Of a stretch of 64,000 nt of DNA, positions 6,001 through 9,000 are shown piece by piece. Numbering within the stretch: position 1 is the stretch's first letter; every line of letters starts with the position of its first letter. This stretch comes from an uncultured Haloplasmataceae bacterium (lineage in GTDB: Bacteria; Bacillota_I; Bacilli_A; Haloplasmatales; Haloplasmataceae): positions 434,001 through 498,000 of the forward strand of contig CAWGPU010000008.1 of NCBI GenBank assembly GCA_963824615.1, read 5' to 3'. Made by a program: the position numbers.

Positions 6001-9000
6001 ATTTAAATTTTAGTAATTTATCAGAAAATCTTGGTTTTACAGGGCCAGTTGATTTTGTTTATTCTAATTTAGCAAGTGTTCAGTACGTTTTACAATATAT
6101 AGAAGCTATGAATAAGTATTTAGAAGATTATGGAACAATTGCCTTTGATAATACAGTGATAACAGTTCCAGGGTCGGAGCTTACTTCTATTCCAGACCCG
6201 TTGACAGGTAATCAACTTGATTTAAATGATATAAAAGCTAAGTTTATTACGGAGGGAAATAAAGTTTCTATATTAGTCAGTACAACTGATGATTATTCGT
6301 ATTCTGATAATACGGAAGGCAACTTTACTGGAACTATTAGTTTATATTTGAAAGTTTCAGCAAGCCAATCTTCAGTTGAAGTGCAATTTTATTTAACTTG
6401 TGATTTAACGGGTAACTCTGCGTCTATGGATAATTTTTCTTTTGGAGATAGTTCTATTAACTATTCAATTGGTTATTCAATGAATGCAGTCGATGGAAAA
6501 TCAGTAGTTATTAATAGTGTCATTGACTCAAATTTAAATATTAATTTTCTCTCAAATACGGTAAATGATGTGAATCAAACGAATGAAACAAAATCATCAT
6601 TTTCATTAATCAAACAATCTAATGGAATTGTAGCTGATTATAAAGTAGCATCAGATATGTTAAACACAGCTGAAATAAATTATCATTTACTAGCTGATAA
6701 CAATGGAGCAACTGTCTATCTTAATGGAACCGTAGCAGATTCGGATTTCTATGGCAATAATATCCCTTCTGAAGCATTAAATGCCGTTACAGTACTTGAT
6801 AATGAAGGACAGACTTTATATATCGGTGGAAATGTTGCTTTAAATATTCCAACAAATGATTATTATGGAAATTCAACTGGGACACAAGCATATAATTATG
6901 CAGGAAGTGCTTGGAATTTAAATGAGTTATCAGGTTGGACAAAAATAAAGAAAACCACAGATACTCAATATTATGATGAATATGAATTATATAATGGAGA
7001 TAATATATTATTAAGCGCAGCAGATGAACAAGGAACTTACTCAACAAATGATGATAAAGAATTATTAGATGGTAAAATAATTATCGGTAGTGGAATATCA
7101 ATTGATTCCCAAAATTTGGTTGGAGCTGCATATATACATATTACAGAAGGGTCTACTGTTAATTTGGATTTACCTGATGGGGTGGCAATGATGCATAATA
7201 ATACTATTCAAAGTGCTTTATTGAAACTTTCTAGTTTTCCAGGGGACATGATGATTGATTTTAATAAGAGCACTTATCAAGTACCGGAATTAAACATAAC
7301 GATTTTTCAATAATTGAAATCAAATAAAGAATCTCATAATTGAGGTTCTTTATTTTTATCTTATTCTTTGTTTTAATCAATTCAAATCTGTGTTAAAATA
7401 AGAGATATTATAAAATGGATGTGATTTTTATGAATAAATTAATTACGAATATTTTTTCTCAAATAATGCGTTTTTTTTCACTAGAAGTAGATGGATTTGA
7501 TATTTTAAATTCTACAGAAGTATTAAGAAGAAAAAATATTATCGTAAATCGATTATTGTTAATTACGAATATTCTAATAACTATTTTTGTAGCGATGTAT
7601 TATAAATCTATAGGATTTCCACGGACTTTATCGTTACTTCTACCTACAATATTAATTAATATATTAATAACCTATTTTGTTTCTAGCCAACGTGAAGATG
7701 ACGAAAAACAAATTATGGGGATGTATATGGCAGTTTTATCAGTAAGCTATATAGCATTAAGATTGTTCTTTTTATACCCAGAACCTTATACATATATTTT
7801 TATTTACATCGCATTAGTCATTATCGCTTTATTTCAAAATCGTCATGCAATCATTTTAGGTGATGTCTTGATTTTTTCAGTTGCGACTTATATTCATATA
7901 CATGAAATGAGTAATGATAACCCATCATTAATATCAAATCCACAAAATGCTTTACATGATATTATGGTTTATACGATGTTTTTAGTTTTATATATGTTTG
8001 TTATAACATCTATGGTGTTTTTTAGTGAATACATGGATAAAGAACGTAAACATGAATTGAAAAAAAGAGAAGAATTAGAGAGTGAATTTCAAAATGTATT
8101 ATGGAATGTATTCGATACAATTGATGATTTCTCTCAAGTAACCGAAAATGATGAATTAACTACTGAATATATATCAGCATTAATGGCGAAAAGACTGGGA
8201 TTCTTATTAAAATTTGATGAGCAGAAATCCCAGGATTTATTTAATTTCGCTGTCGTAATCGGTGTAAATTATGATTTTAATATTAGTTATAACGAAGATG
8301 AAAAAAAAGATATTTTAAATGATTATAGTAAAATTAGATATAAATTAAGTGTTGGCAGTATGCTTTTAAGACGGACAAGAATCCGTATTAAATGTGAAGC
8401 TATGGTTAGAAGTCGTTATGAATCATGGTTTGTTTCTGAAAATTTTAAAAAAATTAAAGGCGAAGATTCAAGCATAGAAAACCAAATTGTTTTATTATGT
8501 GAAATGTATATAATGTTAAGAGACAAGCAAAGTTATAAAAAAACGTTGCCTCATATAAAAGCAATAAAAGAAATCGCAGAAACATTTAACCATTTCTTTG
8601 ATGAAAAATTATTGGCTAATTTCTTAGAAAATCATGTAGAATTTGAAATAATTTATGAAAGAACAAGAAGTTAATGAATTTTTATTAAAAAATTGACAAA
8701 ACCTATGATATACTGTATAATAATTGTGCAAATAAAATATATGGTCCTTATTCAGAGCGACGGAGGTTAGAACCCAATGAAGTCGCAGCAACCCCTTTTG
8801 TGGAAGGTGCTGGTTCAAGGAAGCTAAAGCTTCATCAATAAGGAAGTGGAATTTAAATCCGCCTTCTTGTGCGGATTTTTATTTTTTGTTTAATGAATAT
8901 CAAGGATTATATATATAAAACTAATATCATAGGAGGTATAGAATGAACGATAGAAAATTATTTACATCAGAATCTGTTACAGAAGGGCATCCTGATAAAA

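Follow-up and report, generated by a model that had tools for sequence, protein, structure and literature searches.

The pseudo-HD-GYP gene and its neighbours

The window analysed here is a stretch of 64,000 nucleotides from contig CAWGPU010000008.1 of an uncultured Haloplasmataceae bacterium. It carries on the forward strand an open reading frame of 419 amino acids (7415 to 8674) for a membrane protein that ends in a degenerate HD-GYP domain. A second ATG at 7430 is preceded by the Shine-Dalgarno-like GGATGTGA and coincides with the start of most close relatives, and for both reasons it is a likelier start of the gene than 7415. The Pfam search of the 419-residue protein returned zero matches, and NCBIfam gave a single sub-threshold match to a c-di-GMP phosphodiesterase over residues 217 to 409. 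A terminator-like hairpin at 7322 to 7355 on the forward strand, found in a terminator search (three such sites versus 0.4 expected), would close the upstream gene, which suggests that here the pseudo-HD-GYP gene has a promoter of its own.

The block that follows on the same strand (8693 to 8878) lies outside the gene and belongs to metK, with a sigma-70-type promoter (12/12; 8693 to 8721), a SAM riboswitch (8745 to 8844) and a terminator (8855 to 8878) ahead of metK itself (SAM synthetase; 8943 to 9986, forward strand). Across eight families the pseudo-HD-GYP gene mostly lies beside metK, which is found downstream in 39 of the 50 loci examined, and in many loci of family f19 the gap between the two is about 10 bases. 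Co-regulation of the gene by SAM is unsupported here, with the promoter and riboswitch of metK both 3' of it. A PgpA-family (phosphatidylglycerophosphatase-like) gene stands 4 to 42 bases upstream in 33 of the same 50 loci, and at none of those of the window's family.

Distribution

The gene is a core gene of its own family, as an earlier note on this DNA had stated, and all 12 family genomes have it. The range given there (3 of 19 other class genomes) was too narrow: the gene occurs in 85 of the 300 class genomes scored, in eight families (named here from labels on homologous proteins). It is single-copy and vertically inherited over these families, some of whose genomes measure only about 1 Mb, and the sequences group by family in a quick tree that was used for this grouping only. 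The paralog described earlier was seen in 10 loci between genes that we take, from sequence likeness, to be rsmG-like and noc/ParB-like. Its C-terminal half, said to lack a profile match, is matched by a broader profile (model positions 37 to 438, E 3.5e-18), and in the loci displayed it lacks the Lys of the YK pair. A literature search found no paper on this family; the supplementary tables of an HD-GYP survey preprint, outside the scope of that search, might list a member.

Membrane domain, signalling helix and predicted dimer

Residues 33 to 204 (7511 to 8026, forward strand) form a membrane domain for which four helices had been proposed. The structure model places six (33-61, 68-91, 96-120, 124-140, 143-165 and 176-203), and six hydrophobic peaks are seen. 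Eight polar residues within this domain are near-invariant among 104 orthologues (N41, N52, Q99, Y104, Y127, Q141, H161 and D182). The predicted fold resembles the six-helix anchor of class III adenylyl cyclases such as Cya and Rv1625c, with VIA Z scores of 14.7 for 8SL3 (rmsd 4.5, 212 aligned), 14.4 for 6R3Q and 11.6 for 7YZI, matches that at 5 to 10% identity and with a model pLDDT of 66 lie near the noise level for helical bundles. Homologues of this domain stand at the N-terminus of chemoreceptors and of one active HD-GYP enzyme (P0118, P0144, P0178 and P0095), which points to a sensor module. The succession of membrane sensor, signalling helix and c-di-GMP domain is that of MASE12-HD-GYP proteins (CdgM/Bas0914) and other membrane sensor-HD-GYP enzymes, from which this protein differs in its dead output domain and in having no Pfam match to MASE12 (PF20971) anywhere in its 419 residues. 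In the Atlas, the whole protein leads to MASE12-HD clusters at 0.92; the leads for the membrane part alone are all below 0.9, and MASE12 is absent from them.

The last membrane helix runs on in the model into a signalling helix (residues 205 to 242; 8027 to 8140, forward strand) with invariant R211, E214 and R218, a predicted dimer interface. The homodimer prediction scored 0.70 versus 0.00 for the best control, and the dimer-score mark is reached by 20 out of 30 proteins whose solved structure is a one-chain pair and by 1 out of 23 whose solved structure is a single chain. Contact agreement between runs was at least 54% and pLDDT at least 64, with a ligand included in the prediction and left outside the score. 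The predicted dimer forms through TM4, TM6 and the signalling helix, a TM4-6 geometry that is also that of the receptor-like anchor of Cya in the part of its report available to us (PMC9433096); the score may reflect likeness to solved six-helix and HD-GYP dimers. Its interface comprises 57 of 398 residues and holds 7 of the 27 positions that are at least 95% identical in the 104 orthologues, a modest enrichment. Nine of the 27 belong to the HD-GYP part and the other eighteen to what precedes it, from the N-terminus through the membrane domain to the signalling helix.

An HD-GYP domain without its catalytic residues

The remaining residues, 243 to 419 (8141 to 8671, forward strand), were modelled from an alignment of family members only, without active enzymes (pLDDT 83.9). 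The model has an all-alpha HD fold with extra C-terminal helices and lies nearest to solved HD-GYP domains: its best four structural matches by VIA are all of this class, namely 4MCW (Z 12.6, rmsd 5.0, 142 aligned), 4R8Z (11.4), 9RBZ (10.7) and 9RC0 (9.8). PgpH (4S1B, 7.8) ranks under every HD-GYP structure except one tie group. Foldseek likewise ranks 4MCW top, at an E value of only 2.2e-3, and returned nothing at E≤0.001 for either structure model. In profile searches, HD_5 proteins come next after the family members. The family-only profile gave no real match among PDB sequences, so the sequence match to 4MCW reported earlier hinged on the active enzymes added to that alignment; the kinship of fold stands on the structural comparison. 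A PgpH-type architecture (7TMR-HDED/7TM with a classical HD domain) does not fit the six helices and gave no Pfam match, and profile matches of about 700 residues that had been candidate PgpH c-di-AMP enzymes turned out to be SBP_bac_3 plus HD_5 proteins.

The loss of the HD, HHEK and GYP motifs is borne out across the family. Among the 104 orthologues, one has an HD dipeptide in the region, two have HH at the HHE position, and none has a His at the H250 position of PmGH or a GYP-like triplet (GY[PLM], 0/104). The place of HHExxDGxGYP reads RYESWFVSENF in the window's protein, where K310 corresponds to H250 of PmGH, R334/Y335 to H276/H277, N343 to Y285, E363 to D305 and I366 to D308, so that of the metal ligands H189, H221-D222, H250, H276-H277 and D305 only the acid E363 is left. 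The equivalents of D222, H250 and H277, any one of which abolishes the activity of PmGH when lost (PMC4159591), are gone in nearly all orthologues. Alignment and model thus together confirm the assignment of this domain as an HD-GYP descendant that is predicted to be catalytically dead, its metal ligands gone. It shares its fold and the inherited pattern Y307, R311, Y316, K317 and H322 with PmGH (4MCW), PA4781 (4R8Z) and a 'YDALR' clade of active HD-GYP enzymes. Unlike these, it has no HD, HHE or GYP motif, has lost D308, and has gained the family-specific R320 and K326, new invariant residues at positions that are variable or hydrophobic in HD-GYP enzymes.

Inactive HD-GYP proteins are known elsewhere. 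Bd1817 lacks the same consensus Arg and GYP Tyr and showed no c-di-GMP binding, according to a personal communication cited in the available part of its report (PMC3188283), and the degenerate HnoD acts by inhibiting another phosphodiesterase, as described in the accessible portion of the preprint (bioRxiv 10.1101/2021.11.05.467447). As far as these sources describe them, Bd1817, HnoD and ECA3548 are soluble and lineage-specific, whereas the window's protein is an integral membrane protein encoded by a vertically inherited, single-copy core gene of eight families.

The tail motif and the ligand pocket

The tail motif E363-K376, EMYIMLRDKQSYKK (8501 to 8542, forward strand), was placed by alignment with PmGH, which is ungapped from H250 to the K317 region. 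L368 corresponds to L310, R369 to T311, Q372 to R314, Y374 to Y316 and K375 to K317. The conserved RxxxxYK, which the earlier note had taken for the ligand motif, is therefore off-register: the ligand motif of PmGH is RxY[K/R] (R314/K317), with R314 binding guanine (PMC4159591), and this Arg is lost here as Q372, while R369 falls on T311. Nor is Y374 invariant, being Tyr in 100 of the 104 orthologues and Phe in several family members. Position 372 is R in 50, K in 33 and Q in 11 of the 104 (basic in 83), versus Arg in 60 of 61 active relatives. The GYP tyrosine, a phosphate ligand in PmGH (Y285; PMC4159591) and in DvhD (Y621), is N343 here and F in 84 and N in 9 of the orthologues. The base clamp (L/M310, Y316, K/R317) is kept as L368, Y374 and K375, with L/M at 368 in 104/104 and K375 in 99/104; the aromatic residue at 304 is also kept, and the 32 sequences of families f15 and f19 and the three of f3 all have an intact RxYK. 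The kept pocket residues and the mostly basic position 372 fit a retained anion site. The invariant Y365 and R369, together with H380, also occur in the nearest active HD-GYP enzymes (in 59, 52 and 52 of 61, respectively) and may be inherited structural positions.

By these alignments, the state of the motif does not track ligand supply. RxY[K/R] is intact in 7 of 12 genomes lacking a cyclase versus 41 of 92 others, and in four GGDEF-rich genomes of genus g53 the equivalents of R314 and K317 are both lost, with the diadenylate cyclase (DAC) present. Genus g175 keeps the pocket motif though its seven members share only 55% identity in the HD core. A link between loss of K375 and loss of cdaA was ruled out, since g53 has lost K375 with DAC present and genome G270 has K375 without DAC.

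The closest known counterpart is DvhD of Desulfovibrio vulgaris (described in 2026), a metal-free HD-GYP receptor solved in 9RBZ and 9RC0 that binds c-di-GMP with a Kd of about 99 nM and c-di-AMP poorly, and that is impaired by R650A at the R314 position (PMC13090378, here and below in the part available to us). Both proteins are membrane anchored, with a predicted dimer here, a stalk helix and a metal-free HD-GYP domain, and the base-clamp positions agree (L368 with M646, Y374 with Y652, K375 with R653). DvhD has the GYP Tyr, the arginine of RxYR and a KPG loop; the window's protein has lost all three, the Arg in this lineage only, and sequence alignment reveals no recognisable counterpart of the bridging-site loop of DvhD. 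DvhD also carries dCache and PAS domains and acts on a known target, DvhG, whereas the window's protein has a six-helix anchor and no extracellular domain; unlike DvhD, as described there, its family is also kept without c-di-GMP synthases.

Nucleotide supply and other degenerate proteins of the clade

The window's own genome does have diguanylate cyclases, and of the c-di-GMP elements listed for it earlier the GGDEF genes, the active HD-GYP genes and the riboswitch are borne out: 14 GGDEF matches, five HD_5 matches with intact HD, HHE and GYP motifs and a c-di-GMP-I riboswitch. Each of the 12 genomes of the family has 6 to 18 GGDEF matches. In family f28, 52 of 61 genomes have a GGDEF match at E≤1e-18; none of the seven genomes of its genus g175 does (92 to 99% complete), and all seven keep the pseudo-HD-GYP gene. 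Altogether 12 genomes of four families keep the gene and show no strong GGDEF match, G172, G130 and G455 among them, so that a c-di-GMP source does not accompany it throughout. The GG[D/E]EF motif is absent from the weak GGDEF matches inspected in G290, G022, G172, G130, G449, G452 and G455; G022 has a c-di-GMP-I riboswitch, and its lack of a cyclase may therefore be recent or an assembly gap. In G028 the gene is deleted and no strong GGDEF match is found, a single co-loss. DAC was found in 79 of 80 genomes tested, in 5/5 cyclase-less f28 genomes and in 4/5 other cyclase-less ones, and being near-universal in the group its co-occurrence with the gene carries little weight. The two f25 genomes have the gene but no DAC, and G130 has it with neither DAC nor an intact GGDEF. 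That the gene is nearly universal in the eight related families, even in a genus where no intact diguanylate cyclase was found, points to protein contacts rather than to c-di-GMP reception as its likely role.

The same clade retains two further proteins with degenerate c-di-GMP domains. A dead membrane PAS-GGDEF protein, whose gene adjoins or lies near cdaA, has a single copy in 43 of the 45 genomes tested from the other seven families that carry the pseudo-HD-GYP gene, and a 1004-residue GGDEF/EAL-like protein occurs in 11/11 genomes of f12, 4/4 of f18 and 3/5 of f28. The window's family has only weaker matches to the dead PAS-GGDEF (5/9, E 1e-18 to 1e-30), the one in this genome being a PAS-GGDEF-EAL protein with SGDEF. 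The co-occurrence is at the level of the clade and not independent, and in G028 and G056 the dead GGDEF is present without the pseudo-HD-GYP gene.

A candidate transducer and the alternatives

The reading we prefer, with a probability of about 0.45, is that the gene encodes an undescribed housekeeping pseudo-phosphodiesterase, a homodimeric transducer whose dead domain binds a partner protein instead of c-di-GMP. A signal would be sensed inside the membrane by the six-helix domain, its polar core perhaps binding a lipid or other membrane-soluble molecule, and would pass down the coiled signalling helix, with R320, K326 and R332 possibly coupling the helix to the dead domain. The latter would act through its partner, putatively another degenerate c-di-GMP-domain protein of the clade, with the single-copy membrane PAS-GGDEF near cdaA as first candidate. 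The fold, the loss of the catalytic residues, the vertical clade-wide conservation and the retention of the gene without an intact diguanylate cyclase are results of the analysis. This retention speaks for the transducer, as do the motif that does not follow ligand supply, the share of near-invariant positions outside the HD-GYP part, the predicted homodimer and the precedents Bd1817 and HnoD. The kept pocket residues, the co-loss in G028, the riboswitch of G022, the clade-level nature of the co-occurrence with the dead PAS-GGDEF and the modest enrichment at the interface speak against it.

The earlier proposal of a c-di-GMP receptor built from a dead phosphodiesterase was right about the conserved membrane protein and its dead HD-GYP domain, and its receptor step rested on a mis-registered motif. 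In a DvhD-like form, with c-di-GMP in a metal-free pocket splaying the signalling helices and altering the membrane domain from the inside out, a receptor is still conceivable, though rather unlikely. DvhD works without metals (PMC13090378), the base clamp is kept with RxYK intact in three families, K310 and R334 at lost metal ligands could replace the charge, GGDEF matches abound in the window's family, and gene and GGDEFs were lost together in G028. Against this stand the Gln at the R314 position, a site that matters in DvhD and is Arg in about half of the orthologues, the replaced phosphate-ligand tyrosine, the unrecognisable bridging-site loop, and the 12 genomes without a strong GGDEF match. 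That the remodelled pocket receives another anionic nucleotide (c-di-AMP, pGpG, (p)ppGpp or a short RNA), its specificity having drifted from guanine once R314 was relaxed, is unlikely. The wide occurrence of DAC, the dead PAS-GGDEF beside or near cdaA and the persistence of the pocket motif in g175 would agree with it, as would the c-di-AMP-binding HD domain of PgpH, itself a lower structural match, and the RxxK changes known to shift HD-GYP specificity. It is opposed by the f25 genomes, by the little weight of DAC co-occurrence, by g53, in which DAC is present but both basic positions of the motif are gone, and by the poor binding of c-di-AMP by DvhD in the available part of its report and the reported inability of HD-GYP enzymes to hydrolyse it.

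A membrane domain that is itself the working end, as a lipid-handling or small-molecule channel unit with the dead HD-GYP as no more than a dimerisation and folding appendage, is quite improbable: the eight polar residues and the PgpA-like neighbour invite it, but the domain has the ancestry of a sensor module, the neighbour is missing at all loci of the window's family, and a third of the near-invariant positions lie in the HD-GYP part. A still-active phosphodiesterase with a rebuilt metal site is very improbable. Outside the window's family the HD His is often kept (89/104 overall), H276 is kept in 67/104 and an acid at D305 in 94/104, but the three residues needed singly in PmGH are gone in nearly all orthologues, and the window's protein has also lost the HD His and H276.

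Genes for c-di-GMP signalling are normally accessory, with fast turnover. Here a gene for a dead c-di-GMP domain behaves as housekeeping: it is single-copy, vertical over eight families and outlasts the cyclases. Whether the HD-GYP protein, the PAS-GGDEF near cdaA and the 1004-residue GGDEF/EAL-like protein together make up a core pseudoenzyme membrane-signalling module of the Haloplasma-Izemoplasma-Acholeplasma branch, independent of c-di-GMP and outliving the whole second-messenger system, is doubtful, though the idea may be entertained. The new c-di-GMP effector class foreseen earlier is not needed, since an inactive HD-GYP receptor for c-di-GMP already exists in DvhD, as presented in the portion of that report available to us (PMC13090378). 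Under any of these readings the family offers a natural experiment, with RxYK, KxYK, QxYK, ExYK and SxYY orthologues, from hosts that have c-di-GMP or c-di-AMP synthases and from hosts that lack them, in which the ligands of a pseudo-HD-GYP domain can be compared directly, and it bears on what six-helix cyclase-type membrane anchors sense.

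Membrane architecture, fold and predicted dimer

The gene at window positions 7415 to 8674 (+) encodes a 419-residue protein. Pfam gave no match to it and NCBIfam only a sub-threshold c-di-GMP phosphodiesterase match (residues 217 to 409), and its 43 close homologues (48 to 100% identity; labelled sources Haloplasmataceae, Haloplasma contractile and Mycoplasmatota) are labelled hypothetical. The C-terminal domain has the HD-GYP fold. A model of residues 205 to 419, built from 48 diverse sequences of the family only (pLDDT 83.9), gave HD-GYP structures as its top four structural matches: 4MCW (PmGH, Z 12.6), 4R8Z (PA4781, 11.4), and 9RBZ and 9RC0 (DvhD, 10.7 and 9.8). 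This bears out the fold named in the earlier note and removes its worry over active enzymes in the alignment.

The full-protein model (29-sequence family-only alignment, pLDDT 66) contains six membrane helices, the sixth continuing as a long helix to residue 242 and then into the helical domain. Hydropathy likewise gives six peaks, and the four helices counted earlier are therefore too few. The N-terminal part resembles the six-helix anchor of class III adenylyl cyclases together with their helical domain (8SL3, Z 14.7, rmsd 4.5, 212 aligned; Rv1625c, Z 11.6), a likeness that is suggestive only, as helical bundles match readily. The membrane domain is a mobile sensor module, because sequence comparison found it in chemoreceptors as well as in one active enzyme of the HD-GYP type.

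A homodimer was predicted with a score of 0.70 versus 0.00 for the best control, with contacts through TM4, TM6 and the signalling helix; in the model, residue 318 touches the partner chain. The mark was reached by 20 of 30 proteins solved as one-chain pairs and by 1 of 23 solved as single chains, and a passing score may reflect likeness to solved dimers. Contact agreement between runs was at least 54%, with pLDDT of at least 64. The cyclase Cya is described as dimerising likewise through helices 4 to 6 (PMC9433096).

Lost catalytic residues and conservation

Residues 334 to 416 aligned by BLASTP, gap-free, with an active HD-GYP enzyme of the same genome, which itself aligns with PmGH and DvhD along these residues. 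In the numbering of the PmGH structure paper (PMC4159591), R334/Y335 correspond to H276/H277, N343 to Y285, E363 to D305, I366 to D308, L368 to L310, R369 to T311, Q372 to R314, Y374 to Y316 and K375 to K317. Catalysis has been lost, and a still-active enzyme is highly improbable. According to the same paper, guanine is read by the R314-K317 pair, the RxY[K/R] motif. Because this register places R369 at T311 and Q372 at R314, the arginine of the kept YxxLRxxxxYK tail, from which a c-di-GMP receptor had been proposed, is not the ligand arginine, which this protein has lost.

Among 106 lower-ranked profile matches, the 61 with intact motifs by pattern were counted, and 45 (fragments, paralogs, chemoreceptors and variant enzymes) were left out. 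Arg occupies position 314 in 60 of the 61; Arg at 311 and His at 322 each occur in 52, the latter two counts being partly circular, since the matches were picked by likeness to the family. Even so, these two counts show YxxLRxxxxYKxxxxH to be the usual ending of a single clade of enzymes, with D308 and R314 missing. In 104 orthologues position 372 is mostly basic (R 50, K 33, Q 11, other 10) and L/M368, Y374 and K375 are retained, so that a degraded anion pocket may remain in the dead domain.

Across the same orthologues, 27 positions reach at least 95% identity: the membrane domain holds 11 of them, the tail 6, the signalling helix 4, and the N-terminal segment and the HD core 3 each (R320, K326 and R332 in the core). 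Set against the 61 motif-intact proteins, R320 and K326 are family-specific. Selection is thus strongest in the core of the membrane domain, along the stalk and at a small number of basic residues on the surface. It is improbable that the membrane domain is itself the working end.

Range and genomic surroundings

Of 300 class genomes scored with a 67-sequence profile, 85 carry a full-length orthologue (E below 1e-79), and these fall in families f1 (12/12), f3 (5/8), f12 (22/22), f15 (17/17), f18 (6/6), f19 (15/15), f25 (2/2) and f28 (6/6). Every other match covered the C-terminal HD-GYP only, at E above 1e-24. A phylum-level draw (55/299) gave no further carrier family, the genomes among those listed all being marked as the same class. 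Homologue labels include Izemoplasmatales and Acholeplasmataceae, and from such labels we infer which orders the families represent; these orders are placed among lineages with repeated loss of walls and spores (PMC10868615). Descent of the gene is consistent with being vertical, because orthologues cluster by family in a quick tree.

In the window, a sequence scan placed a terminator-like hairpin (7322 to 7355) 5' of the gene. On its 3' side the gene is followed first by a perfect sigma-70-type promoter, next by a SAM riboswitch and then by metK. The sole metK copy (8943 to 10150) has a frameshift near 9965 to 9985, so that its ORF ends at 347 residues and the last ~55 residues follow in another frame. 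The break in this essential gene is probably an artefact of sequencing or assembly. Among 50 loci, metK lies 3' in 39 and a PgpA-family gene lies 4 to 42 bases 5' in 33 (e.g. L050:2602-3192 and equivalents), where the order is priA-like, fmt, pgpA-like, main gene, metK. Genomes of f3 carry a second PgpA-like copy near a degenerate PAS-GGDEF gene. The 536-residue lipoprotein-like ORF 5' of the main gene (5703 to 7313) has no Pfam or NCBIfam match, and a relative lies upstream in just two other family loci. Elsewhere in the window are a T-box leader (41901 to 42103) and small ORFs (16005 to 17615) that we take to be YjcZ-, YlbD- and YlbF-like, resembling sporulation or coat proteins, from which the host may be capable of sporulation.

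Retention without nucleotide synthases

Across 301 class genomes, GGDEF genes are abundant in all carrier families, which favours a c-di-GMP link in the origin of the gene. The gene is nevertheless kept independently of intact cyclases. Four genomes from four families (G290, G022, G172 and G130; 96 to 99% complete) retain it with one weak GGDEF match apiece, a membrane PAS-GGDEF protein in which SGLDF, TGSTF, QGILF or SGIRF replaces GGDEF, and with no other HD_5 match. G022 alone of these has an EAL-like match and a c-di-GMP riboswitch, which weakens it as a cyclase-less case; the riboswitch (c-di-GMP-I; L102, G022:C96:12656-12731; 59 bits) has a gap-like gene on one side and, on the other, a small ORF that precedes an ung-like gene. 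In f28 the gene is present in 60 of 61 genomes and a GGDEF match at E<=1e-18 in 52. The nine without such a match include all seven of genus g175, which assembly gaps explain poorly; among five more of the nine, three had weak GGDEF matches and 0/6 loci had GG[D/E]EF (G450, G453 and G474 left out). Against independence from c-di-GMP, G028 has the gene deleted and no strong GGDEF. G056 also lacks both, which may be an assembly gap because the neighbouring gene copy is absent too.

The dead HD-GYP membrane protein of the earlier note stands in fold and lost catalysis; its c-di-GMP reading is weakened by the loss of R314 and by retention in cyclase-less genomes. A c-di-GMP receptor resembling DvhD is doubtful: the genome of the window has an intact c-di-GMP system, so that a lineage-specific c-di-GMP role may exist there, but its lineage is among those that lost R314, and all seven g175 genomes carry the gene without strong GGDEF. 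Nor does RxY[K/R] follow ligand supply, being intact in 7/12 cyclase-less versus 41/92 other genomes (plain counts, in which kin are not independent), while four GGDEF-rich g53 genomes have neither basic residue. A receptor for another nucleotide is unlikely. DAC occurs in 79/80 tested genomes and in those cyclase-less genomes of f28 that were tested. It is missing, however, from both f25 genomes, and G130 has neither synthase, so that c-di-AMP offers an alternative in part only.

We therefore tentatively prefer, at a probability of about 0.45, a dimeric membrane transducer whose pseudo-phosphodiesterase output would work through protein contact, with a membrane-embedded input, helix coupling and a protein partner as its putative steps. 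Degenerate HD-GYP regulators that work by protein contact have been described (bioRxiv 10.1101/2021.11.05.467447), and Bd1817, which lacks the same Arg and Tyr, is reported not to bind c-di-GMP (personal communication in PMC3188283). Inactive HD-GYP receptors are not the new effector class once suggested, because DvhD, a solved, metal-free receptor, is described as binding c-di-GMP at about 99 nM without hydrolysis (PMC13090378). Our literature search, whose reach excluded supplements and most subscription papers, found no description of the present family. The surprise lies less in a receptor than in a dead c-di-GMP enzyme that became a core gene and outlasted c-di-GMP synthesis.

Companion degenerate proteins and the paralog

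The degenerate PAS-GGDEF gene (L070-L073, L078-L081, L110 and L111, e.g. L071:424-1995; active site SGLDF/TGSTF/QGILF/SGIRF) is core to the seven other carrier families, with a single copy in 43 of their 45 tested genomes; the two in which it was missed are 78% and 55% complete. Weak matches occur in 2/21 outgroup genomes, and the window's family gives no more than weaker matches (5/9). It lies beside or near cdaA, with ispD/ispF-like genes, wherever both were seen, and is kept in G130 without cdaA. A 1004-residue protein (L077:203-3217) whose start is TPR-like and whose GGDEF-like and EAL domains are degenerate is core in f12 (11/11), f18 (4/4) and part of f28 (3/5), and this query matched it nowhere else.

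The paralog (L002:1444-2688 in G000:C5) lies, as previously noted, between genes that we presume from sequence likeness to be rsmG-like and noc-like, at 10 loci of the window's family and a probable 11th in G004. Its tail (YEHLRNDKPYI) is more decayed, with YxxLR kept and YK absent. On the same contig, a 537-residue ORF (L003:1456-3069) joins a serine-recombinase-like N-terminus (PDB 3G13 match) with a membrane-bound HD-GYP enzyme and may be the scar of a rearrangement.
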